A stretch of DNA of 63,126 nt, counting the filler. It is 10 parts of 10 records of this genome, joined end to end, with 100 filler letters (N's around TTAATTAATTAA, not from the genome) between each part and the next. Parts side by side here need not be neighbours in the genome. Positions count along the whole stretch, not along the records: positions 42,362 to 47,996 come from SRR31147125_140968; 9 more parts are not named here. One strand, written 5' to 3'. Of the stretch, positions 5,003 through 55,881 are shown piece after piece (within the stretch, counting starts at the first letter, position 1; each line of letters opens with the position of its first letter). The notes under the pieces are model-generated. The model saw only the letters and a program-made list of their open reading frames with translations, was not told the origin of the DNA and made no database searches. Both the position numbers and the translations under genes were made by a program.

Positions 5003-5102
5003 NNNNNNNNNNNNNNNNNNNNNNNNNNNNNNNNNNNNNNNNNNNNTTAATTAATTAANNNNNNNNNNNNNNNNNNNNNNNNNNNNNNNNNNNNNNNNNN
5101 NN
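5003..5102. other. Artificial contig spacer (N44-TTAATTAATTAA-N44). The same spacer occurs at 11325-11424, 17750-17849, 23315-23414, 29214-29313, 34457-34556, 42262-42361, 47997-48096 and 55782-55881.
   Basis: Identical 100-nt linkers with stops in all six frames; composition and gene content change abruptly across them. Confidence 0.99.
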
Positions 5103-11054: not shown

Positions 11055-11424
11055 GAAATAATGAACAGCGATTATTTATTAAATAGTTTATTTGAAAGCT
11101 GTCGACAGCCATAGCCGGATCACAGCTTTCGATCTGAGATGTGAATAGGCCACTCATGAGCGTTCATTAGAAAGTCTCCATAAAATGCTGTAATAAAAAA
11201 ACTTTCACGCATCGTTGTGATGCGCCGACAAACATGGAGGTTTAGTGTGATTATCAATCAGATCATCTGAATGTCGAATTATCAAAAAATGACAATAATA
11301 TCTAAATAATATAAATGAAAAAAANNNNNNNNNNNNNNNNNNNNNNNNNNNNNNNNNNNNNNNNNNNNTTAATTAATTAANNNNNNNNNNNNNNNNNNNN
11401 NNNNNNNNNNNNNNNNNNNNNNNN

Positions 11425-17663: not shown

Positions 17664-17849
17664 ACTCTCTCCCACGTTTAAAGATCCCGACAATCATGGG
17701 CTAAAATGGCCCCACAGGTCATGCCATAGTCATTTTAGGACATAAAAAANNNNNNNNNNNNNNNNNNNNNNNNNNNNNNNNNNNNNNNNNNNNTTAATTA
17801 ATTAANNNNNNNNNNNNNNNNNNNNNNNNNNNNNNNNNNNNNNNNNNNN

Positions 17850-23314: not shown

Positions 23315-23536
23315 NNNNNNNNNNNNNNNNNNNNNNNNNNNNNNNNNNNNNNNNNNNNTTAATTAATTAANNNNNNNNNNNNNNNNNNNNNNNNNNNNNN
23401 NNNNNNNNNNNNNNCTCGGGGATTTCACTATTGCTACAAACAGTTATGCCTGCATATTGCTTCATGGATTGGTCCTTGTGCTTTGCTCAGGTTCTTATAT
23501 TACTCCAGATGAAGTACTCAAATTCGAATATGTAGT

Positions 23537-29076: not shown

Positions 29077-29313
29077 ATATATAATCAAAACCATAAGAGC
29101 TACTACTTGATAGTAGGTATATTATGCAAAAGTCACACCAAAAGTGATAAAGTCAAATAAAACTCACATGGCTATTCGGGGTAACAGGTGATAATTTGTG
29201 ATAACTCTGGTGGNNNNNNNNNNNNNNNNNNNNNNNNNNNNNNNNNNNNNNNNNNNNTTAATTAATTAANNNNNNNNNNNNNNNNNNNNNNNNNNNNNNN
29301 NNNNNNNNNNNNN

Positions 29314-34456: not shown

Positions 34457-35098
34457 NNNNNNNNNNNNNNNNNNNNNNNNNNNNNNNNNNNNNNNNNNNN
34501 TTAATTAATTAANNNNNNNNNNNNNNNNNNNNNNNNNNNNNNNNNNNNNNNNNNNNGGTGTTACAAAATCACTTGACCATTACACATTTTCCCATCATGA
34601 ATTGATTCCTTCCAGTTTGCTTATTATGTATAGCACATGATATTAAGGTACGTCCCAAATCAAGTATGTTATGGCCGCTGGCGACGGCCTCCATGACACG
34701 CTTGACGCAGTCCTGCCATTTGATCGCAGAAAGTGACGCATGAGTAGCGGGCTGCACTCTTAATGAACTGCCCATTTTTGCTTTAACGCACACTCTCACC
34801 GCCCGCGTCCCTTACATTATGTTACCATATCCGACAAAAATCAACACAGCACGCTGTCGGTTGCGGGACGCGGAGGACAGCGGCCTTACATGCTGGAACG
34901 GCGGGATGTGCAAGATGGGTTTTTGATAAATTATGGAGCCAATAAGACTCAACCACGCAAAACGGCAAACTCATGCATTGAGCTTGCCGTTTTTTGTTAC
35001 ATCCTAAAATTGATTAATTTGATTGAAATCTCTATAATAAAGCAATGTGGACGGTCAACCGTCCGTAAATTTTAAGATAACGCAAAGGCCGTGGGGGA

Positions 35099-42261: not shown

Positions 42262-42361
42262 NNNNNNNNNNNNNNNNNNNNNNNNNNNNNNNNNNNNNNN
42301 NNNNNTTAATTAATTAANNNNNNNNNNNNNNNNNNNNNNNNNNNNNNNNNNNNNNNNNNNN

Positions 42362-43119
42362 CCCTGGCGTGTCAGGTTCCAGTTTTCTTTTGTCCATGGG
42401 TTTGAATTCTCATTATGGCTGGGCCTGCCTGCTGCCTGGGCCTCTGCCATCAGCCGTTTGGCAAGGGCTGGTTTATCGCGCACTATGCGGCCCTGAGCTG
42501 TAACATTGAAATGCTCCCCTTTTATGAACGGATTCGGGCCGGTGTGGGTGATTCCCCCTTGGCTGTTTTTATTGGCCGCCTGCTGAGCTTTTCCCGAATT
42601 GAATAGAAATGTATAGTCGGGATTCCGGGCCATGGATTTAACGAACTCATCCAGGGGCTGGGCTGTGTCCATGCCCGAAGGGCTGTCATTTTTGCGTATA
42701 CTGGCCTTTCCATGCTCATCAACTGTGATACTGCCAAGCTGTTTGGCTAATTTGCAGGCAAGGTCAGGGTTGACCGCCCCGGCCTCTTTAACGGTTTTTT
42801 CAAGTGCAAAGTCAACGCCTATGGCGTTCAGTTTTTCTCCCAATTTAGCTGCTTCTTCCAAAGCCTTTTCACGAAACCGGATAGACCGGTCAGCCAGGGA
42901 CAGGGCGGCTTTGTCCTTGGCATCCAGGGTGTCCGGCTCCTTGCCATTGATAAATTCCCGAACGGCCTTGGCCCGCTCAAGTGCAATGAGGTCGCCCCAG
43001 GCTTCATTTATCCGACCTGGGGCCTGGTGGATCTGGTATGCCTTCGGGTGGCTTGCAGGGATTGTGGTTTTAAGGGTTGCTGCGGCTTTCTGTGCTTTAA
43101 TGATATCGGTCAATTTCAT
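42362..43119 (-). CDS. Phage capsid scaffolding-like protein (3' truncated)
   Basis: AGGAG RBS and a helical body. The C-terminal NPF.K.EHFN.T.QG.I.RD.P.LA..L...A motif is followed by a second copy starting NPWTKENWNLTRQ. Confidence 0.65.
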
Positions 43120-43282
43120 TGTGAATACTCCTATAATTTGGTTGGGCATAAGTGCCCGTCTTTACTTCGTTGCGAAAATTGCGATTTAATGGGTGTTTTT
43201 ACCTGAGGCTATACGGTTGTGTGCCTCAGAGTGTAAAACACCCCTCAGATGGCATTTGATGGCTTTGTGGCATGTAATTTAC

Positions 43283-43811
43283 TCAATCGCCGTCGTATGA
43301 CTCATTGCCATATTCAGCTTCGGCCTCATTGAGCGCATCAATCCAGTCCTGCATTGGATCAGGCGCGCTATCGTCATTACTGGGCTGAACAAAGCGGCCA
43401 AACTCATCCGGAAAGCGACGCTCTAAAATCCACGCAGACGGGACCCAGTTCGGTAATGTCTCCCTCGTGATTGTCTTTTTTCTCAACGATGACCTTTTTG
43501 ATATCCCCGGTGGCAGGATCACGCTGGGGACGTTCGATTACATGTTCTTCGGTATACTTTCTGCCGCCCTGGGCTGCTGCATTAATATTTTGAAGGTGCC
43601 ATAGCCGGGCTTTCACGTTGGCCCTTTTTAAGGCATCGTAAAACTCGACAAAGCGACCGCTTTTTGCTTTTTCCCCTTTGGCCTTCCATGCATAAAAAGT
43701 AGCAGGATGGATTCCAGCGAACCGAGCACTTTGTTCGTAGGTAAGCCCTGAGGCTACTCCTTTGCAGATCATTGCAATAGTCTCAGGTGTCAATTTAGTC
43801 TTTCTTGCCAT
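43283..43811 (-). CDS. Terminase small subunit-like HTH protein; one-base frameshift near 43478
   Basis: MARKTKLTPE, AGIH.ATFY.W...G and F.EF.DA.KRA. The shifted C-terminus contains W..SAWILERRFPDEFGR. Confidence 0.65.
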
Positions 43812-43871
43812 AATGGATTTCTCCTTTTCTGATTTGGAATTTTGCTTTGAAATTAAGTGGTAGAGATATGG

Positions 43872-44018
43872 TATATTATATATAGTGCAGTACTGTGGGT
43901 AAGCCGTAGGGGAACGGAAAAATGGGCGTTTCCTGCGTTTACGACTTACCTACAGGAAAGTCGTTGGTCATTTACGGCTTACCTGTGGTACTGCGTAACG
44001 ACTTTCCTGTGGTACTGC
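43872..44018. repeat. Iteron-like repeat cluster with AT-rich flank (putative replication origin)
   Basis: Five copies of ACGRCTTWCCY: direct at 43941, 43974 and 43998, inverted at 43954-43964 and 43897-43907. Three extend to related 21-mers ending GTACTGC. TATATTATATATA lies at 43872. Confidence 0.65.
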
Positions 44019-44027
44019 TTATTTTTT

Positions 44028-44479
44028 TCATGCATTGCCTTTCTTTCCATGGGTCTGCCATCCAGCTTTCCCGTTCTTTTGCGGCTCTCTGATAACCTGC
44101 CCAGGTGTCCACGCCCGCCAATCCTCGGTGATTGAATAAATACTAAAATCACCTTTGTGCTTTCCCCCGTATTGATTGACCTCTATGAAGCCATGTGCCA
44201 AGAGCTGTTGAAAGGCACTCCAAATGGTTTTATCTGAGTACCCCAGGCGTTCCCTAATGTCAGCGTAAGGCAATACGATATTATGCCGGTTGCGAATGTC
44301 AGGCTGATATTTTCCTTCTTCTTTTGGCTGGACATCTTGATTTCAAAATATAGCTGGGTCAAAATCTCTTTGGATGCCGGTTTCAGTTCCCTGAATGCCA
44401 TTGACATAAAGAGTTCATAAGTCAGATAGGCCGGGAATTTTTGTGATTTCAAGTCCCGTATTTTCCGTTCTGTCGCCAA
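44028..44479 (-). CDS. Winged-helix protein, putative replication initiator; one-base frameshift near 44314
   Basis: GGAGG RBS and TTG start. It reads S.AFRELKPASKEIL.QL, then after the shift IVLPYADIRERLGYSDKTIWSAFQQLLAHGFIEV..YGG. Confidence 0.55.
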
Positions 44480-44504
44480 AGGAGTTCCTCCATATTTTGC
44501 CGCC

Positions 44505-44579
44505 AAAATAAAAAGGCCTGCGTGTACTGAGATGGCGACATTCCCAGTATGCCCCGTTGCAATCAGGACCACGCAGGCC
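44505..44579 (-). ncRNA. Three-way-junction structured RNA followed by a U-tract
   Basis: A perfect 10-bp closing stem (GGCCUGCGUG/CACGCAGGCC) encloses two hairpins, GUCCUG-AUUGCAA-CGGGGC and UACUGGGA-AUGUCGCCA-UCUCAGUA, followed by UUUUUAUUUU. Confidence 0.6.
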
Positions 44580-44688
44580 GTATGAAGACAAGCACACTGA
44601 TCAGGTGGGCTATGTCTCAAACTAAAAACCCGTGGAAAGGCTTGATGGCTCCCCACGGATTTTGAAATACTGATTTTAGGTTTGTTGT

Positions 44689-44889
44689 TTAGCTTCGTAA
44701 GGCATCCATTAGGGTAGACCTTTTCAATTTGAGCCAACCTGAATTTTCATTCAATAGGCTGGGGACAGTCATTCCCAATATTCGGCCTATAACCTCACTC
44801 CTGCTCTGGCCTACCTGGGCGGCCAGGCGGTCAACGTCATTTTTAAGATGGGGTCGGATTGCCAAGGACGTAGTTTGTTTTGCTGCCAT
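44689..44889 (-). CDS. Ribbon-helix-helix (CopG-like) DNA-binding protein
   Basis: TTSLAI...LKNDVDRLAAQVGQSRSEVI; AGGAG RBS. Confidence 0.7.
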   Translation of the reverse strand: MAAKQTTSLAIRPHLKNDVDRLAAQVGQSRSEVIGRILGMTVPSLLNENSGWLKLKRSTLMDALRS

Positions 44890-44931
44890 GTTGATCTCCT
44901 AATATGATGAGTTCTTGTTATGGTATCGCCA

Positions 44932-44973
44932 AATAAAAAACCCGCCTGTCCATACTTGATGGATACAGGCGGG
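44932..44973 (-). terminator. Intrinsic terminator/attenuator upstream of the RHH gene
   Basis: Minus strand CCCGCCTGT..ACAGGCGGG followed by TTTTTTATTT. Confidence 0.7.
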
Positions 44974-45057
44974 CCTGAAAGGGGATGGATGCCCCGATAT
45001 GATTCAATTTTAAAGGAGCAGTTCTCATTGCGCCTTTTGTAAGTATTACACTCCTAT

Positions 45058-45582
45058 TTAAAAAGTTTTTCTTACATGGAAAGAGGTGATGATGTCTGTG
45101 GAACTTGTGAAACGCTTATTAAATCTGATTATAAATTTTTTATATTTTTTTTGCTGCGCTATAAAAAATACGGGCTGCCCGTATATGGAAATCAGCTCAG
45201 ACATATGGATGCGCTCAAGAAGTTTTCGAGCTGGGCCTGTAGGCTTTGACCTGCCGCATTCCCAGTCTTCAATTGTTCGTGGCGACACTCCAAGTTCTTC
45301 ACCAAGAGTTTTAACACTCCACTCGCGCCATTTACGGATCGTCTTTACCGCGTCTGGCAAATTATCCCAGTCCACGGGGCCATAAAAACCGTCTTGATAG
45401 CCTTTTTTGCCACTGGGTGGAGCTTTTGCCTTCATATTTCCGAAATGCCGTTTTGAAAGCCTGATATCACCAGGGACCCATTGATACCTAAGCCTCAATC
45501 CCTTAACGTACCACTCCCAATAGGAAGTATCGTCTTGGGATTCGGCGATTTTTAACTGTTCTTTGTAAGCTGATTCTTTCAT
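45058..45582 (-). CDS. XRE-family HTH protein
   Basis: VKTIRKWREWSVKTLGEELGVSPRTIEDWECGRSKP; the 3' end is uncertain. Confidence 0.75.
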   Translation of the reverse strand: MKESAYKEQLKIAESQDDTSYWEWYVKGLRLRYQWVPGDIRLSKRHFGNMKAKAPPSGKKGYQDGFYGPVDWDNLPDAVKTIRKWREWSVKTLGEELGVSPRTIEDWECGRSKPTGPARKLLERIHMSELISIYGQPVFFIAQQKKYKKFIIRFNKRFTSSTDIITSFHVRKTF

Positions 45583-45616
45583 ATGCTTTGCTTAGCTCTC
45601 CCAGGAATCCCCTGCA

Positions 45617-45956
45617 TTAAGGTTTTTGAACCGTTGCCTTCTTATTGCCTTGCGTATCATAAATATTAAGGCGCTTGCCAGACTGCTTGACACTGCCTTT
45701 ATATCTGTCCTGGGCATCAAAGATGGCACCGGCCTTGATACGGCCCTTCAATTTGTCGTCAGGGCCGTAAATATCTTGACGGCTGCCCTTGTGCCTACTT
45801 TCTCCCAAGAGCTTGAACTCAGGTGAATAGCATACCTCACGGCCATTTTCTTTAACAGTCCTACCCTTGATATCCATGCCGATTATATACCACCTCACCG
45901 GCATGAATACCGGACGCTATCAGCCCAAAAACCAATATGGCAATCAGCCGCTTCAC
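45617..45956 (-). CDS. Small exported beta-repeat protein (probable frameshift near 45880)
   Basis: GTG-MKRLIAILVFGLIASGIHA signal peptide in one frame; repeated (I/Y)Y/FD..(G/D)..KG.(I/V) units in the adjacent frame. Confidence 0.45.
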
Positions 45957-46118
45957 TTAGTCAGCATTCTCCAGGGTAACGCGGATTGCTTCGGCCTGCC
46001 CCGCAATGACCACGCTGCCGGTATCCGGATTAACAAATACTCTGGGGTGGGCAGTCGGTACAAGGCTCTCATCCATTCCAACGGTTTCAGCGGCTGTGTT
46101 TTCAATCGTGTAATCCAT
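45957..46118 (-). CDS. 53-aa hypothetical protein (absent from the ORF track)
   Basis: AGGAG RBS, then MDYTIENTAAETVG...RVTLENAD*, with the stop abutting the next GTG. Confidence 0.55.
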   Translation of the reverse strand: MDYTIENTAAETVGMDESLVPTAHPRVFVNPDTGSVVIAGQAEAIRVTLENAD

Positions 46119-46163
46119 GGTTCGGCTCCTTAGTTCTGCGTGTAATCGGCCACAATGGCCGGG

Positions 46164-46349
46164 TTATTTGTCTCTATACATAGGCGTATTTTCCATTTGC
46201 TCAAGTTTGGCCTGGGCCTGTTCGTCTCCGGCCTCTGCCTTTTCTTTCAGGCGGCCAGCCCTAATCCAATCGCTGTTTGCCTCATCTGCGGCCAGATTAA
46301 TTACCAATCGGCCTTTTTCATCCCTGGAAATCGGTTTAATTTGTTTCAT
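46164..46349 (-). CDS. 61-aa hypothetical protein
   Basis: GGAGG RBS directly after the integrase stop. Confidence 0.6.
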   Translation of the reverse strand: MKQIKPISRDEKGRLVINLAADEANSDWIRAGRLKEKAEAGDEQAQAKLEQMENTPMYRDK

Positions 46350-46361
46350 CAGTCCTCCTAA

Positions 46362-47996
46362 TTAATGCTTCGTAAAACGGGATTTTTTTAGATGCTCCAG
46401 ATTTACCGCATAATTGAGCTTTAAGACCGTTTCATTATACAAGACCTCCACCGAATATCTCTTACCATACCGCCCCATGGTCTCTCCCTGGACTGCATGA
46501 CCGGTAAGTTCATCAATGAGGGTCTCGGTTATAAGTTGCTGTTTCAGGTTATCAGACAAGGTGTGCCGGAATGAATGGAATACCAGTTGTTTAGAATCTA
46601 TGCCGCATTTCTGCTTGAATCTGCCAAACCATTTGGTGGCCTTGTGTCCATAGTTGAAATTCTGGTAGGGCAGTTCCGGGAACAGTCTGGTTTCGCCTCT
46701 GTCCCTCATGGTCTGTACATGGCCCATAAAGTTCAGTTCATCGACTATGAAGGGGTGAAGGGGGACCGTCCGCATAGAGGCCGTATTCTTGATGGAGACC
46801 TCCTTGTCCTGGGAATCTTCCTGCATAACCAGGGAGGGAATACCGTCTATCTCCTGAACGTCTTCAAGCCTCAACTGGCACAACTCGTTTATCCTGGCCC
46901 CAGTGTATAGACCCAGGACAGGAAGCCAGAACTGATAGGATTCTTTGAAGGTGTCCTCTCTGTACTCTGGGGAACCGAACAGGGACAGCAAATCAGCCGG
47001 TGTAAAGGCCTTTCGGATCTGGTCTGGCCTCTGGTTCCTATTGACCTTTATTTTGGCCCCATCGGCGTAATTTGCGGGCATATAACCGTTCCCTACACAC
47101 CATTTAAAGAATGCTCCAAGGGCCGTGATATAGCCGTTTATGGTGCTTACGCTGATCGTCTCAAAGCCCTTTGTCTGGTTTATCTCGATGATTTCAGGGA
47201 CCGTCTTGCCTTTGAATACTCCCTTCTTGTTCATGCCGGACGGTAACTCCATGAGGGTCTCCTTGATATGCCGGACCGTGGCATGGTCTACAGAATCAAT
47301 GGGCTTGTCTTCTCCAAGAATCTGCTTAAAGATGGTGAAGTATCCGGTGTATTGCTTGTGGGTCCTGGGTTTCCAGGTATTGGCCCTTTGGTTTTCCTTG
47401 AACCATTTGTCGATGAGAGAGCCTATTGAGGGACCTGTGGGCTTCGATGGTTCTTCGGCTGCTACAGGGACGTTAGGAGGGGAGGGGCTTGGGGCGGGTC
47501 AGTCGGATAGGCGGCCAGGGTTTGCGCCTCAACGGGGCTGGTATAATTGCCTAAAAGACGCTCCTTTTCAATCTCATTGAGCGCCTGCCTGAGCTTCAAA
47601 AGCTCCCATGCAGTGTATCTGTAAAGGTCGCTGTCTTGGGGCATGGCCGGGAGTTGTTCTGAATTTAGGAAATCATTTATCTGGGCATTGTCATTCAGAC
47701 CGGGCCGACCTTGAAGCTGGTCCTTTATATCCAAAGATTCCATAGCAAGTGCCATATCGGGCTTGATTCGCTGTCCTGTGGGAGTACTGTCTGGTCCTAT
47801 CACCGGGCCGCCGTATGGCTGCCTAAAGCCGCCGCCGTATGGGTCCATGCTGGCCAGCCGGACTTGTTCATTGCCTTCAAGGATTTTTCTGAGGTACCGG
47901 CCCAGGGCTGCCCTAATTTCCGCTTTTGAAATACCGTTCATTGCTGCCTTGCTCTTTTTCATGAAATCATTTACTCCTGTGGCAAGCTGGGCGGCT
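46362..47996 (-). CDS. Tyrosine recombinase/integrase (5' truncated; one-base frameshift in a C-rich tract near 47470-47500)
   Basis: WLPVLGLYTGARINELCQL, IKNTASMR.VPLH, FHSFRHT, LTGH and RYG supply the R-K-H-R-H-Y catalytic set. The frame is open upstream to about 47470. Confidence 0.9.
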
Positions 47997-48096
47997 NNNN
48001 NNNNNNNNNNNNNNNNNNNNNNNNNNNNNNNNNNNNNNNNTTAATTAATTAANNNNNNNNNNNNNNNNNNNNNNNNNNNNNNNNNNNNNNNNNNNN

Positions 48097-50075
48097 GGAC
48101 TTCCACAACTTCAACACCTACTACCGCAAGGATGAGCGTTATGTCGTCGTAGGCTTCACGGCCACGCAGATCCCCAAGATTGAGGGACGCACCTACCCGC
48201 CCTCGCTTTCGGGACCCCTGTATCCCAAGGTGCGTGAATTGATAACACCCTCTTCCCATTTACTGATGACTTCCTATGTAGGGTCTTCCTATCTGGCGTG
48301 AGGAGGACTTGGAAGACATTGTCAAGCGCGAAAAGGTTGATACCTGCGTCATGGCCTACTCAGATCTTTCCTACGACTGGGTCATGCAGCGGTACGTCTA
48401 GTGTCGAGTGATCTTTCCTCTTATAAGCGAGATTATCCAGATCGGCACGCGTCCTGGCCTGTGGTTGTGATTTCAAGCTTATGGGATGGGAGAACACCAT
48501 GGTGAAGAGCACCAAGCCCGTAGTAGCAGGTACATTGTTGCTGTTGTCGTCAAGAGGACCACAGGGAACTGATGACTTGGTTTCTAGTTACGGCCATCCG
48601 CACAGGGTGTGGCAAGAGCCAGACCTCGCGATACGTGGCGGAGCAGCTCAAGAAGAACGGCCTCAAGCCCGTTGTGTGCCGTCACCCAATGCCCTATGGC
48701 AATCTGGTTGCTCAGGCCGTCCAACGCTTTGGAACCTATGACGATCTTGTGAAGCACAATGTTCGTAGGTCGTGTAAGAAGTCGCGTCGTTGTTATCTGA
48801 TGAGACAGCCCAGGTGACGATTGAGGAGCGCGAGGAGTACGAGCAACACATCGACGCGGGTACCGTCGTGTTCGCTGGTGTCGACTATGAGAGGATTCTC
48901 CGTGAGGCTGAGAAGGAGGTACGGGATGCGTGTATGTTATATGTATAACGAACCGGCTGGCCTTCCTAGGCCGATGTGGTCATCTGGGATGGTGGTAACA
49001 ATGACACTCCCTTCTTCCGACCGGACCTCTGGATCGTCGTGGCTGGTTTGTGCACGTGGAAAAAAACAGAAATGGTCTGCTTTGACGCTTGGATCCACAG
49101 ACCCTCACCGTGCGGGGCACGAACTGAAGTACTACCCGGGTGATGTGAACTTCCGATGTGCGAACATCATCGAGATCAACAAGGCAAACACGGCCCCCGC
49201 TGGCTCCATCGACAAAATCCTTGCGAATGCCAAGATGGTGTACGTATTGATGTTCGTGTGCCTAGTACGGTCGGTACTCACGATTGTGTCGCACCAGGAA
49301 CCCCAAGGCAAAGATCATCATCACCAACTCCGAGGTGACAGTCGACACCCCCGATGTCATCAAGGGCAAGAAGTGTGTGTGTGTGGATGATGGTCCCACA
49401 CTTACCCACGGCGAGATGGCCTATGGTGCTGGTCAGGTGAGTGAGTGAATGAGTGTGTGATGACGACGAGGATTCGTGATGAGTGTTGCCGGGCCGGCAT
49501 TAGGTGGCCGCCGAGAAGTACGGCGCCAAGGAAATCATTGATCCCCGGCCCTTCGCAAAGGTTTGGATGTGCAAGAAGCCCGCCCATCTGACTCCCCTGT
49601 TACAGGGATCCATCAAGGGAGTGTTTGAGAAGTTCCCGCACATTGGCAAGCTTATCCCGGCCATGGGCTACTGGGATGAGCAGGTGGGACTGACCTTTCT
49701 TCGCCCGCGTGTACGACTCATGCTCACGACGACATCTATCTGGCACACAGATCAAGGATCTGGAGGATACGATCAACGCCTGCGATGTGGAGGCTGTCAT
49801 CATTGCTACACCCATGGACCTGCGCCGGTGAGCAACGAATTGTTGTTCGTCATCAACCAACCAACGCACACAAACTATTTCGTGTGCCTCAGAGTGGTGA
49901 AGATCACCAAACCGTGTGCCGTGGCTAGCTACAGCGTGGTGGATCGTGAGGCCCCGTTCTTGAGCGCTGAGATCAAGGAGGTTTGTCGTCTCGGCCGGCC
50001 TCGCCTCAACGGAAAGTGTGCCCACTAACATGTATGTGTGCATAGTTCATTAGCAAGACGGTGAAGAAGCAATAG
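48097..50075 (+). CDS. Eukaryotic spliced gene: arginine synthetase (ArcE)-like / cDPG-synthetase-like P-loop protein (5' truncated)
   Basis: Twelve GT-AG introns: 48230-48281, 48392-48440, 48530-48587, 48761-48813, 48919-48969, 49046-49100, 49240-49297, 49437-49503, 49561-49605, 49684-49750, 49828-49892 and 49981-50045. Removing them gives one frame: DFHNFN...TATQIP...RTGCGKSQTSR...RHPMPYG...EEREEYE...WDGGNND...DGPTLTHG...PAMGY. Confidence 0.85.
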
Positions 50076-50671
50076 AGTGCCACCGTGTGCCACCCCGTCT
50101 GTCTGAATGAACTTTCGTGTTCATTTGATTCATTCACCATGGTTGAGACCCGAACGACATGCACGGACTCTCCCCCGCTGGTTTCAGAAGCTCGGCCGTT
50201 GAAGAGGCATGAGTGGACACTAGACTGAGAAGCACTCATGGGCAAGGTCACTGCCCCCGTGTCCCTGGGGACCGTCCTTTCGGCTTGTTGTTGCTGTTGG
50301 CGTCATCGCCGCATATACCAAACTCCAGCAGCAGCCAATCCTATGACAGCCACAATAGGACAGACAATGCAAATCCCAGTGTTTCAGGGACAGTAGCGAA
50401 TCCTGAGGCAATTGCTACGGCTTGTTGTATGCCCAGTAGGGCTATGAAGGTCCAGACGGTGCGACGCATGAGTAGAAAAGGAAGAAGGAAAGAGGGAGGG
50501 GGTAAGGGCAAACCAACAATAACTGAACCAGACCAAGCACAAACATTCTGCAACTGAACTGAAACACACGGATCGACGAAGGCATTCGCTGATACTAACA
50601 CCACCACAAACCCATTCACGGTAGAGATGTTCCATCAATTGAGAAATGTAACACAAGAGCGTTCACTCCCA

Positions 50672-52601
50672 TCACCACCCCGCATTGTAACCCCACAAGG
50701 CCAGCCCGCCTACAACTAAATTCACAAGAAGAAGGGCCGATCCCACAACCAGAATACAGCGCGTCAGAGATTCTACGTTGCTACAGGATCGACCCAAGGC
50801 AAGGGACAGAAGAAGACGCAACGAATGTTCCCCGTCAAGAAGAAACACAGGGGCCATGTTTAAGAGGCCGAGGGCCGCTGAGAACGACACAATGTACCTG
50901 AGAAGAGAGAGATCAGCATCCAGGACAGAAAATGGACGAAATACCTGAGAAGGCGTCCTGCCATTAGTGGTATCCACAAGATCATCGAGGAGCGTGCCAG
51001 GATACGGGGTAAGAAATCGGAGATTAGGACTGAAGAGATCCGTCAGACAGGTAACCCAGAAAGAACCGGGGAACAGACAGACGCACACGAGGAGGCAAGC
51101 CCAAGGGGGTGTCCGGAAAAGAGTAATCGTGTCCCATTCCTCAGGAAGAGCGGGACGATCTGATGTCCTTCGGGGAGTTTCGGAACGAAGCACGAGGGTT
51201 CAGCCTCGTCGCAATCACTGTTGCAAGTACACCGCAGCTCTCCCACAACGAGGCTTGCGCGTGCACATAGCGGCTGCATCTAATTTGGGGCATCATACTC
51301 TACACTGTACACACACGTGCGCACCACTATCGTTGTGTTGTAGTGGAAGCACTGTAGAGGGCCATCGTAGTCGATTTGATCACAACAGCTCAAGTCACTA
51401 TACAACTCTACCAGATCCAGATCCAGTCAGTCCATTCCACTTGACACAGTCCGTACACACGCACCCATGTTGGACGGTGGTGCTCCACAGTATCCAGGGG
51501 CTTCTCTGCCCTGAGATGTCACAAGATTCAGGAAGCAACTCTCCCAGGATTCTTGATCGACAACGGCACACGTCCCCACAGAAACCAGCACATCACCAGG
51601 AAGGATGCGAGATGTCAAGGGGGTTCCCTGATCCGTGTAAAACGACACCTGCCATACAACGGGTCCACCAGCTTACCTCCTCGACTTGAACAACCACAAC
51701 CCCCTCTCCCTGTGAGAAGAGCGGAAAGAACAATACGGGAAGTCCCACCAAGACCAATATCCCCATGAGACTCAGCATCAGGTTGTGCCAAGCTCCTCCA
51801 CAATACACACGAAGCTGTTGCCACGGGGTGTGCGAGGGTGACATATCCTGCGAGATGTGGACGTATGCGCCGGGGAAGATCAACAGCAAAAAAGCACCAC
51901 AGCGGCTGATCTTAATGCCTTGACTGCGAGGACGTGAAGTTTGGTGGATTGCGATGGGTGATTTGCTAGACACACCTTCCTGCTGCGATTGCATGACCAA
52001 ACTCATGAAACGCAACACAGATCAACAGGGAGAGCCACAAATATCCCATCTGGCTCAGAGGTAGGTTCACACCGGGAATCTGCCCACGCACAATGTCGTC
52101 ATTCCAGCCAAAGTTCATACAGAGACCGTTCGTACGACAGGGGTAAGGAGTTGAGGTGTCGTGGCGGGGGCGAAGAGGAGACGACTCAAGTTGACGACGA
52201 GCAGAAGAACAGAGCCCAGTAATCCCACCACCCCAAAGCCCACACCTGCAGAGAACCTTTGTAGCCAGGCACGGCACACTATTGTCACACACACACACAT
52301 CCCACACACCGCACACACATCGTCGCCGTCGTCACATACCAAGGGAGGAGCCAAGAGGCGTGGCGCTTACCAAATGTGTACAAGAAAGTGTTGAACGACG
52401 TTGTGTACCACCCCACAAACCCAAAGGAGACCCTAATATGATGATGGAGAAGCCACTGTTGGAACGGTGTACCACGACGTCTCTGTGTGGGATAGGTGTG
52501 TTAGGTTGGACAGACAGGCTGAACCAACCCGGTACCTCGATCTGTTTAAACACGAGAAACGCGGCACCCCAGAGCACAAGCACCCACGCAAGCAGATGCA
52601 T
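50672..52601 (-). CDS. Eukaryotic spliced gene: site-2 protease (MBTPS2-like, M50 peptidase); exons not fully mapped
   Basis: IPGVNLP...LICVAFHEFGHAIAA (HExxH), FPGAYV, LRVYCGGAWHN and LLNMAPVFLLDG motifs are spread over several frames separated by intron-like segments. Confidence 0.8.
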
Positions 52602-52999
52602 TGGAACGAGGACAAAAAACTCAGAGGAGAATGAAGGGCGATCCTATTCAACGCACAATCAATCAACCAACCCACCAACCAATCAATTCATCAATCAATT
52701 CAGCCCCAATTCCCCTTTCCATTTCCATTCCTGTGGTCCACCTTCTGGACTTCCTTTTTAGGAAGTTCCATAGGCTGTGGGTATAAAAGTGCGTCGTCCT
52801 AATCCCTCGTTACCCCGACAAATGGAAAATGAGACGGTCTTTTTCCTCCTTCGTGCCTTGTTGGGCGTGTGTGGGGGGGTGTTCTCTTCATTGGAACACA
52901 GCAAACCAGGCACATTTCAACGTCTAAGAGGTTGAGGGAGTAAGTGCTAAGTGCGTGGTTGCGATAAAAACCCCGAACGTGTGAATCGTATTGCTTGCA

Positions 53000-55781
53000 A
53001 TGGCGAGTGGACAGAACACCCTCAGGCACACGTCCACGATGAAGACGTTGAACTGGACAACTTGCCGTCCCCTTTACCCTTTCCCAGCGCAACGCAGACT
53101 GTGAGCTTCTCACATCCAGTCCCTGCACGACTTCCTCCGGCAACCAGCTATCAATATCCGCCGCATGGAACCCGCCTACCACGACGTGATGGGACCCGAA
53201 GGAGCAAGGTTGCACTCTGTGTCTTCGTTACAGTTTTGGTTCTCGTCCATGCCGCCTTCATCTTCACCTTCAATGCTTTCATGTTGCGCCGTTTCTACTT
53301 TCTCCGAGCGTCACTGGGCACCAGCTCCTTGGATATTCTTGCTGACGATGGTGTGTCCATCACAGGAGATGTTTCCATCAGTCATGACGGTTCTGAGAGC
53401 GATCTCCTCCTCCAGTCTGGCTTAGAAGATGGTGGAAGTGGAGTGACAGCAACGAATGGGCCTCTGAGACTCGTGACAACCGGCCAAGGAACGGATGTCC
53501 TCGCGCGTCATCAAACCAGTGGAACAGAGACAAGAATGGGCACGGCGTGCAACGTACACACAGAGAGGGATGAAAATGAAGAAAACACTGGTGGCGGTCG
53601 TGGTAGACGAGACACGACTGGGTCCTCCTCTTCTTCGTGTCCATCGGGAGCGGGAGGAGTACTCAGTGTCCGTACCACTGATCCCACTACCGACATTGAA
53701 ATCAATCCAGGGAACAGGTACATCCCCTCTCTTGTTGTAGGAGAGGAAAGAGTGGACATCAACCCTGGCGGAAATGGGATTCCTGCGGTTATGGTGTATC
53801 CGGAACGAGTGACTTATAACGTGCCCGTTCAGTTTGACAATGGTCTTGAAATGAATGGGTCCATCCGCGTCCAGGAGTTGAAAGCTGACAATGTGTCTGC
53901 TTCCACCATCACGGCCAAATCTGTTGAAACCGCGGAGATCGAAGCTCAACATATCAAGACTCAGACCGGTACCTTTGAAGAGGGGCTCACTGCCCCCCGG
54001 GCCGGTGTTGACTACATTGTGGCGGATCGCATCGATGTGGGAGATATGACCCTGGAATCGAATCGCATATCTTCCACGGAGGGTCGGGATCTTGTGCTGC
54101 ACTCGGACACAGTGGCTATTGGGACTGGATCAGCTCCCTCGGTTATAACCAGCACCGGTCTTCAAGCGCATGAGGGAGACACGGGACATAATACAACTCT
54201 TCGTGGTCAGGATGCCAGCCAAATGGGAGGAGACCTCATTCTAGAAGGTGGTTCCTTTCATAACACTGATGGAAGCCGTGGAAATGTTTTACTCACTGGA
54301 AGAGATGTATCGGTTCACATGGATGACACTTTCACGATTCGTCAAGGTGACAACGGCCAATTAGGTCTTACCCTTAGCAGCGATACGATGACCACGAGTG
54401 TCACGAGTACATTCAATAAGCCTGTGACATTCGAGGGCAAAGTACTCTTCGAGGAGACCGTTGCAATCGATGCAGATTTCCTAGTTCATAACGGGGGAGA
54501 GAATCGTGCTACATTCGAAGTTCCCGTCAGGCACACAAGTTCCGTGGTCATCGAAGACTCACTCGATGTTCTGGGAGGCCTTTCCGTGTCATCTGCAACG
54601 GGGATTCAAGTAACAGGGGGTGTGACAGTCAATGAGGGACCGTTCACACTACACGGCCCTCTTCATGCCTCTGGCCCAGCAGAGCTTGACACAGTGGCCA
54701 TTTCCGACGGTGGATTAGAAGTAACAGGGGGTGTGATTGTTCACGAGGGAGGCATGGAAGTCTTGTCAGGGGTGTGGCCATTTCGGGCGGTCTGACCGTG
54801 ACGGGCCCCGTCAACATCGATGGTGTATTTTTGAGTGAATTCGAGAAGGAAGTTATTGTTCACACGGGTGGAATAACCGTGGAAGATGGCGGCCTCGACG
54901 TCCAAGAGGGTGGTGCGACCGTTAACGGGGGCCTGGAAGTGACAGGGGGCATCACACTTCATGACGGGAGCGTATTTGTGGAGAATGGCGACGTGGTAAT
55001 CAACGGTGGATCCGTTACCGTGGTTCAAGACGGAGAAGTATTGTCGACTGTTTCTTCGTCGGGAATTGTAGTGAGCGAAGGAGGAGTGGTCGTCAACCGG
55101 GGAGATATGGTTGTGAACGGTGCTGTGGAGACGTGTGAACTCACTTCGTCATGTGGCGTTACCGTGCTCGATGGTGGCGTTACCGTCCGTGAGGGTGGAC
55201 TTACAGTCGAACAGGGACTGTCTGTGATCAGTGGAGGCCTGGTCGTCGAGGGTGGAATTACCGTTTCAGGCGATACAGTCTTACAAAATGTGGACCTTGG
55301 TCTGCTAAGCGGCCTTTCGGTTGAGGAGGGACTCGGTGTGAGTGGAGGAATCACACTTTTTACGGGAGACATGTCGATTCTTGATGGTACCTTTGTGGTC
55401 TCTAGCGGTGGGATGGAAGTGGCTGGCGAAATTAAAGCTGCGGAGGGCATTGACATTCTTGACGGTGGTATCGTGGTGACAGGCGGTGTCACGGTGATGA
55501 ATGAAGGATTGCTCGTGGATAAGGGGCATGTGGAGTTCAATGATGGACTCAGTGTCGCAGGTGGACTCTTAGTGGAGAATAGTGGAATTCAAGTGGCTCA
55601 AGGTGGACTGGAGGTGACCGGAGGGCTCCTTGTACGCGGGAACGATGAGGTCGTTGTGGAAGGACCGATCTTTTTCAAAGGCTCCGTCCATTTTTCTGTG
55701 CCGCTCACAAGCAGCGACCTTGAGGATGGAGCCATGACTGCATCAAAGATCGCGGACAACGCTGTCACTTCTTCCAAGATT
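53000..55781 (+). CDS. Single-pass membrane protein with long Gly/Val-rich beta-repeat ectodomain (3' truncated; probable homopolymer frameshifts near 53020 and 54770)
   Basis: A TM segment (LCVFVTVLVLVHAAFIFTF), an RGRR site, many GG(L/I)xV(T/S)GG repeats, and terminal MTASKIADNAVTSSKI. No introns are apparent. Confidence 0.65.
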
Positions 55782-55881
55782 NNNNNNNNNNNNNNNNNNN
55801 NNNNNNNNNNNNNNNNNNNNNNNNNTTAATTAATTAANNNNNNNNNNNNNNNNNNNNNNNNNNNNNNNNNNNNNNNNNNNN

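Follow-up and report, generated by a model that had tools for sequence, protein, structure and literature searches.

What kind of element places the gene for the small terminase subunit (TerS) directly before a gene for a head-scaffolding protein, with neither the large terminase subunit (TerL) nor a portal protein encoded between them? The question is raised by a contig of 5,635 bp, at positions 42362-47996 of a 63,126-nucleotide stretch of DNA (hereafter, the window), which a first-pass annotation had described as a phage-satellite-like element. We conclude that the contig is a piece of an integrative phage-derived bacterial element, most likely a satellite of the type called phage-inducible chromosomal islands (PICI) or a recently inactivated copy of one. 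We give a probability of about 0.42 to the reading that it is a fragment of a PICI-type phage satellite, possibly inactive. We favour this reading because the content and the order of the genes fit the PICI layout and operon I of the pathogenicity islands of Staphylococcus aureus (SaPI).

All the credible genes of the contig are encoded on the (-) strand, in the same orientation. Along this strand, an integrase is followed by two small open reading frames (ORFs), a third small gene, a regulator with an XRE-type helix-turn-helix (HTH), a ribbon-helix-helix (RHH)-like protein, a winged-helix protein, a cluster of repeats, the TerS-like gene and the scaffold-like gene. The seven ORFs of the (+) strand, of 82-185 aa, match no Pfam family. 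The gene list, the order and the shared orientation given in the first-pass annotation thus stood, while its RHH and Rep-like assignments proved weak. Two of its three small ORFs are intact, and the third is a frameshifted gene.

Only ~2.55 kb separate the integrase from TerS. The early region of tailed temperate phages far exceeds this length, and the interval is therefore too short to hold one. This bears on a first rival explanation, in which the contig belongs to an ordinary, functional temperate phage, or else to a capsid-forming island, with an unusual gene order, and the capsid, the other head and tail genes, TerL and the portal lie past the contig ends. The contig is indeed cut at both ends, and a major capsid gene could follow, as it normally does after a scaffold gene. 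Given the short interval, and the evidence on the terminase given below, we find this explanation improbable.

The terminase and scaffold genes

The TerS-like gene (43286-43811, -) occupies two frames, 43811-43404 and 43537-43286. The first matches positions 9-93 of the profile phrog_4102 ("terminase small subunit") with an E-value of 3.4e-16, and the second matches positions 85-112 of the same profile (E = 6e-4). Both the HTH and the conserved C-terminal region are thus present on the contig, but in different reading frames. This region, "...LERR[FY]P..[WY]G", is found in a single frame in ten TerS relatives, and tblastn placed the two parts consecutively in frame in relatives such as the one of locus L002. 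On the contig the parts are continuous only if one base in the homopolymer region is an error. In the phage collection, the protein best matched an ORF without a name in Methanobacterium virus PhiF3 (41.5% identity, E = 6e-11); the genes immediately after it are annotated as large terminase and portal.

The N-terminal HTH of the TerS-like protein also matches the Pfam family HTH_Tnp_1 (E = 3.5e-7). This would suit an assembly chimera or another type of integrative element, in which the protein is a regulator or is associated with a transposase. Two further points agree with such an origin: the quality of the assembly is not established, and members of the family occur in multiple copies, away from TerL, in metagenome-assembled genomes (MAGs) of Methanosarcinaceae and in several actinomycete genomes. 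Yet the PHROG match of the protein is better than its transposase match and reaches the conserved C-terminal LERRFP region, the gene adjoins a bona fide head-scaffold homolog, and the contig has no transposase catalytic domain. We consider this explanation very unlikely. The assignment as TerS, made from the letters alone in the first-pass annotation, holds in view of the phrog_4102 match and of the position of the PhiF3 homolog. The scaffold assignment, discussed below, holds as well.

We scanned genome contigs with a profile made from the TerS alignment and obtained 72 loci, all of them distant, from many phyla. A TerS-like ORF could be called in 63 of them, and 57 had downstream ORFs (105 ORFs, which were scanned with Pfam). 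TerL or a fragment of it follows TerS in 23 of these 57 loci: it is the first downstream ORF in 21, the second in L003, and a fragment matched by PHROG profiles in L002. In L009, L034 and L047 a large unassigned ORF or a portal gene lies next to the TerS relative. The other loci, many of them in Methanosarcinaceae MAGs with several copies of the gene, show nothing like a terminase after it. Unlike in these 23 loci and in PhiF3, TerS is followed on the contig by the scaffold gene. No TerL was found in the contig with Pfam and PHROG profiles, and there are no genes for capsid, protease, portal, connectors or HNH within 42362-47996. The adjacency of TerS and scaffold, with neither TerL nor portal between them, is real and unusual, as had been proposed. 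It also argues against a functional phage of unusual gene order, since the terminase comes directly after TerS in the 23 relatives where it is recognisable.

The scaffold-like gene (42364-43119, -) starts with MKLTD at 43119, according to the alignment with its relatives, and is preceded by AGGAG. It is cut by the contig end after 252 codons; judged against the relative P0011 (275 aa), about 24 residues are missing. The protein matches phrog_206, "head scaffolding protein" (E = 4.4e-7), and, below the cut-off, the Pfam family PF06810 (E = 0.015). The tblastn search in phages matched only SPP1-type Bacillus phages, at the annotated scaffold gene 11, with 29-31% identity over residues 110-241 (132 residues, E = 5e-5 to 7e-4). 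An exhaustive protein search gave 95 relatives, 11 of them at E ≤ 1e-10, and the best was P0011 with 46% identity. Among 12 aligned members of the family, seven matched phrog_206 (best E = 1.1e-11) and four matched phrog_194, both annotated "head scaffolding protein". Other searches with the scaffold were negative: a word-index protein search returned nothing, a contig profile scan with a two-sequence alignment matched 452 stretches of which none was confirmed, there was no match in plasmids, and the PDB held no match by sequence or by fold (E ≤ 0.001).

Members of the family share the C-terminal motif NP[WF]..(F/W)NLTxQGR....P.LA.RL..EA, which may bind the capsid protein, as the C-termini of scaffolds suggest. 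Searching with the strict pattern in the 95 relatives (P0011-P0105), we found one copy in 62 proteins, two in 14, three in five and none in 14. The contig protein has the motif twice, as do its two closest relatives. Some of the relatives with several copies lack most of the N-terminal half. An AlphaFold2 model, built from an alignment of 40 sequences, has a mean pLDDT of 91.1 and consists mostly of long helices (27-58, 67-112). Its matches in BFVD have E-values of 1.4e-5 to 1e-3, with TM scores that are low (0.3-0.5), as expected for rods, and several of those with names are annotated as "scaffolding protein" or "minor structural protein GP20". Together, the profile match, the ~30% identity with SPP1 gp11 and the helical model indicate that the gene encodes a member of the head-scaffold family with a predicted elongated helical fold.

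TerS and the scaffold gene are separated by a spacer of 166 nt, and the latter has its own Shine-Dalgarno sequence. The fold of the spacer (43290-43125) has an energy of -40.8 kcal/mol (z = -2.84), which was equalled in one of 200 shuffles. It includes a nested hairpin (43190-43250, -) with an outer stem of 12 bp and an inner stem of 7 bp. The hairpin matches no Rfam family; a terminator, a packaging site and a regulatory RNA are all conceivable roles.

Several loci of the TerS scan are of interest in their own right. In Methanosarcinaceae the TerS-like HTH gene is present in multiple copies per genome with no adjacent terminase (L006, L013, L017, L031, L033 and L064 come from one MAG), and it is followed by unrelated genes (for PAP2, a KaiC-like ATPase and a DUF7507 protein of large size), which suggests a repeated or domesticated element. 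In L045 (10435-12771), a TerL of 778 aa lies downstream of the TerS relative and matches an intein-splicing domain of Pfam (E = 1e-7, below the cut-off).

Integrase, regulators and a candidate origin

The integrase is encoded in two parts. The N-terminal part (47462-47962, -) is an ORF of 166 aa with an AGGAG Shine-Dalgarno sequence upstream, which matches no Pfam or PHROG family. The second part (46365-47498, -) contains the core-binding and catalytic regions of a tyrosine integrase and matches PF00589 (E = 5.4e-11) and phrog_1 (E = 9.5e-29). There is no stop in this frame over 378 codons, and a protein begun at its first start codon would have only 296 aa. We found 800 relatives, the closest with 78%, 76% and 75% identity. 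It is the middle region of the full-length relatives (498-591 aa) to which the 166-aa ORF aligns, and the relatives P0106 and P0110 start at the position equivalent to its start. These two (P0106 is the one with 78% identity) also lack the DUF6538-type N-terminal domain, PF20172, that most other relatives carry. Similarly, the contig integrase shares PF00589 with the DUF6538-type tyrosine integrases, and PF20172 was not found in it.

The integrase also points to a host, contrary to the statement in the first-pass annotation that none could be determined from the contig. Its named relatives come from uncultured Desulfobacter, Desulfobacterium, Desulforhopalus and Desulfocurvibacter. Because close relatives, with up to 78% identity, are found in Desulfobacter, Desulfobacterium and related genera, the host is probably a member of the Desulfobacterota. 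Matches of the integrase in phages and plasmids had at most 30% identity.

Next to the integrase are two small ORFs of 61 aa (46164-46349, -) and 53 aa (45957-46118, -), followed by a gene (45617-45956, -; GTG start at 45956) that was delimited by frame analysis. It encodes a small protein with a signal-peptide-like start, as read by eye, and a short repeated motif. None of the three matches a family in Pfam, PHROGs or PADLOC. The third gene sits between the integrase and the regulators, which is the place of the accessory genes in PICI.

There are two candidate regulators. The XRE-type HTH protein (45058-45582, -; 174 aa) matches PF01381 HTH_3 (E = 1.5e-5, 25.3 bits for a cut-off of 23) and phrog_2104 (E = 7.5e-11). 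The RHH/CopG-like protein (44689-44889, -; 66 aa) is matched weakly by PF01402 (E = 0.054, below the cut-off) and by phrog_7325 (E = 0.012). PADLOC gave only generic HTH matches. Scanning 12 (-) ORFs with Pfam, we found no AlpA or primase domain, in agreement with the first-pass annotation, and no match to Phage_AlpA or MerR at E ≤ 0.1. The XRE protein and the weakly matched RHH protein are possible analogues of these regulators. Neither Pfam nor PHROG profiles matched a primase or helicase domain in the contig.

A small winged-helix protein of ~150 aa (44031-44479, -), with a proposed TTG start at 44479 after GGAGGA, may be a replication initiator. It weakly matches DnaD_N (E = 0.0034) and the profiles phrog_428 and phrog_270, both "replication initiation protein" (E = 1.4e-3 and 4.3e-3). 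Among its look-alikes in the atlas are RepA_N and HTH_36 clusters (0.91-0.93), although few features are shared. A tblastn search of phages and plasmids gave no match.

Directly downstream of this gene is the repeat cluster (43887-44021). It comprises two tandem repeats of 24 nt (44021-43974), one full inverted copy (43908-43887) and partial copies. The iterons of the first-pass annotation are therefore to be read as this short set, whose 13-nt core has exactly two occurrences in the whole 63-kb window. After the repeats come an AT-rich stretch (43885-43855) and the ribosome-binding site of TerS. An initiator gene, repeats and an AT-rich stretch make a plausible candidate origin, with an operator of the late genes as an equally plausible reading.

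Comparison with known satellites and phages

In the passages of PMC10085698 that deal with gene layout, PICI are described as a series of integrase, regulation, replication, capsid morphogenesis and TerS genes, with no other structural genes. The order on the contig, i.e., integrase, regulators, a possible replication region with repeats and a packaging/capsid module, resembles this layout. According to the same passages, the core of PICI includes a regulation module with homology to alpA, merR or stl, and a primase-replicase module. The part of PMC12409344 that describes SaPI states that their operon I joins the capsid-size genes with terS (cpmA, cpmB or rcm, pti genes and terS in the pac-type SaPI) and that CpmB and Rcm compete with the scaffold of the helper through shared motifs. 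By this analogy, the scaffold-related protein of the contig could compete for the capsid protein like CpmB or Rcm. As in PICI and SaPI, the contig has its own TerS, and no TerL is seen in its 5.6 kb. Its capsid-related gene differs from those of SaPI in encoding a full-length protein of the scaffold family, of at least 252 aa; CpmB is reportedly much shorter. It also differs from PICI and SaPI in that all of its genes are co-oriented, that the host phylum is probably the Desulfobacterota, and that four genes are frameshifted.

The capsid-forming PICI (cf-PICI, e.g., EcCIEDL933) offer a second comparison. They too are led by an integrase and have head-assembly and packaging genes. They are described with genes for capsid, protease, portal, connectors, HNH, TerS and TerL (10.1101/2022.09.08.507074), and only TerS of this set is present in the 5.6 kb of the contig, where the gene order also differs. 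Moreover, in cf-PICI a protease takes the place of a separate scaffold of the SPP1 type. Should the scaffold gene of the contig be followed by a capsid gene, the element would build its own heads. Complete sets of capsid and packaging genes, in orders that vary, are reported for cf-PICI and for satellites of Streptomyces (10.1101/2022.09.08.507074, PMC10690885), which gives some support to a functional phage or island with the missing genes past the contig ends.

The phage-inducible chromosomal minimalist islands (PICMI) of Vibrionaceae are of a similar small size class and are also led by an integrase. As far as PMC10803314 details them, they are defined by int, alpA, a primase and an insertion next to fis, and are without terS and capsid-remodelling genes. 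The contig has a TerS and a scaffold gene, and alpA and primase genes were not found in it.

With scaffolds of the SPP1 gp11 type (phrog_206, PF06810), the contig protein shares 30% identity over 132 residues and the helical model. The core of the conserved C-terminal motif, NP[WF]..NLTxQGR..P.LA, is common to it and to 81 of its 95 relatives. In the contig protein this motif is doubled, and the gene comes after TerS instead of after a portal or minor head gene.

If the contig belongs to a PICI-type satellite, its genes would act as follows. The integrase would insert and excise the element, and the XRE and RHH proteins would hold it silent until a helper phage infects. The winged-helix protein would bind the 24-nt repeats beside the AT-rich stretch to start replication. 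TerS would bring the TerL of the helper to the packaging site of the element. The scaffold homolog may bind the capsid protein through its doubled C-terminal motif. It would then either rival the scaffold of the helper and lead to small capsids, like CpmB and Rcm of SaPI, or assemble a capsid protein encoded just past the contig end.

A more specific proposal goes further: an undescribed satellite lineage of Desulfobacterota, in which AlpA and the primase-helicase would have given way to the XRE/RHH pair and to a small initiator, similar to RepA_N/HTH_36, that acts on the 24-nt repeats. The helper would be hijacked by TerS and a full-length scaffold only, the doubled motif would re-size or monopolise capsid assembly, and the frameshifts would be sequencing errors. 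Taken as a whole, we regard this proposal as doubtful.

Frameshifts and evidence for decay

Four genes change frame once each, through a single-base shift: the integrase, the small signal-peptide-like gene, the winged-helix gene and TerS. The shift of the integrase lies within a C-rich run (47501-47465): the 166-aa ORF stops at 47464-47462, the catalytic frame is open from 47498, and the full-length relatives are continuous across this point. The gene at 45617-45956 shifts at a G3 run (45866-45864). The intervals of the two other shifts are 44342-44186 in the winged-helix gene, with four runs of four bases, and 43566-43471 in TerS, with an A6 run at 43481-43476. There are no in-frame stops in any gene, and short homopolymer runs occur inside every shift interval. 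Such a pattern, of frameshifts only, is compatible with homopolymer miscalls, and real slippage mutations also fit it. The copy on the contig is functional only if the shifts in the integrase, in the winged-helix gene and in TerS are sequencing errors.

Several points weigh against a PICI-type satellite, and most of them concern decay. Four frameshifts in 5.6 kb fit the decay of the element, and make a dead satellite or a decayed prophage a serious alternative. Other contigs of the same tetranucleotide group contain long intact ORFs, of 933, 702 and 694 aa, so that a high error rate across the run is not evident. The fraction of the sequence occupied by ORFs of at least 150 aa is 0.73 in this contig, against 0.81-0.98 in eight others. 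The nearest genomic relatives of TerS, in the Dehalococcoidia MAG loci L002, L003 and L004, adjoin TerL fragments, transposases or a duplicated TerS. In L003 (10440-12469) the TerL after the TerS relative is broken up into three ORFs, and in L004 (8826-15176) the TerS relative is duplicated and flanked by identical transposase genes; both loci are decayed prophage remnants. TerS without an intact TerL therefore also arises by decay. In addition, 34 of the 57 scanned loci had no recognisable TerL behind the TerS-like HTH gene, and the family label of TerS is therefore not exclusive. The family does act as TerS in many phages, and some of its members lie outside packaging modules.

Other points concern the gene set. 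No AlpA, Stl or MerR homolog and no primase-helicase were recognised on the contig, which sets it apart from PICI and SaPI, and the proposed replication role of the winged-helix gene relies on weak matches with E-values around 1e-3. No search found relatives with the same set of genes. In particular, tblastn showed that none of the 72 TerS-related loci has a homolog of the scaffold, the integrase, the XRE, RHH or winged-helix proteins, or the small ORFs. Finally, since the contig stops within the scaffold gene, genes for capsid, portal, TerL, tail or lysis may come after it.

The points on decay also fit a second and serious rival explanation, a decaying remnant of an ordinary temperate prophage in which the early region and the TerL-portal block were deleted and frameshifts are accumulating. 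TerS and scaffold would then be neighbours by an accident of deletion. The four frameshifted genes, the other contigs of the window, which are not visibly fragmented, and the remnants L002, L003 and L004 agree with it. It would also account for a scaffold family that otherwise resembles that of normal SPP1-type phages, where TerL, the portal and a minor head protein reportedly lie between TerS and the scaffold. However, the genes that are kept amount to a functional series that is complete, ordered and compact, with little junk and with ribosome-binding sites of its own. The lesions are limited to frameshifts, each with homopolymer runs inside its interval and with no in-frame stop, and the scaffold, the XRE gene and the small ORFs are intact. 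We thus judge a remnant to be somewhat unlikely, and retain the PICI-type satellite, possibly inactive, as our preferred reading.

Composition of the contig and of the window

The region 42362-47996 corresponds to exactly one contig, free of N. The window consists of ten pieces of 5,002-7,705 bp (G+C of 0.41-0.535), joined by N44-TTAATTAATTAA-N44 spacers at 5003-5102, 11325-11424, 17750-17849, 23315-23414, 29214-29313, 34457-34556, 42262-42361, 47997-48096 and 55782-55881. Accordingly, the window has 18 runs of exactly 44 N, paired around the 12-mer TTAATTAATTAA. Since the pieces are bounded by artificial spacers, the sequence beside the contig is not its genomic context, and ORFs that seem to cross a spacer are artefacts. 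The remaining pieces code for ordinary bacterial genes (FlgI, MutS, an AmiC-like amidase, PaaK, a GGDEF protein, a BarA/TorS-like kinase, ProV). The tetranucleotide correlation of the contig is 0.54-0.67 with pieces 1, 2, 3, 7 and 10, and 0.08-0.16 with pieces 5 and 9. From this composition, the window is probably a mixture of organisms.

We searched for further links of the contig to phages and hosts. The whole contig had no DNA match in phages with blastn, which also speaks against a functional phage, and no match in complete Escherichia coli genomes with megablast. No helper-like sequence was found in the window, where the scaffold motif is confined to this contig. No tRNA was found, and there is therefore no candidate for an att site. 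Rfam gave no family at the gathering score in the window and three sub-threshold matches, all in the contig. Scans for promoters and terminators gave results at or below those expected from shuffled sequences. As for circularity, the contig has no terminal overlap of at least 8 nt and no 10-mer common to its two ends. At 47963-47996 (-), the 11 opening codons are free of stops, in frame with the N-terminal ORF of the integrase, and faintly similar to the extreme C-terminus of the scaffold relative P0011 (4/10 residues). As no terminal overlap supports circularity, this similarity is probably due to chance.

The adjacent piece, 48097-55781, has the lowest coverage by long ORFs (0.72) and an outlying tetranucleotide signature. 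Its region 48481-50028 is made of short overlapping (+) ORFs, resembling one gene in fragments, without an NCBIfam match. We had considered this piece as a control for the error rate, and dropped it because of its different tetranucleotide signature and because its ORF pieces match no NCBIfam model.

Implications

A prophage remnant would be ordinary. If the contig is from a satellite, it would extend phage satellites to the Desulfobacterota, where a full-text search of the literature gave no description of them. It would also show a third route, besides CpmB and Rcm, for the use of a scaffold as a hijacking tool: a full-length scaffold with a doubled and putatively capsid-binding motif. TerS directly followed by a scaffold gene would then be a marker pair with which similar elements may be found.

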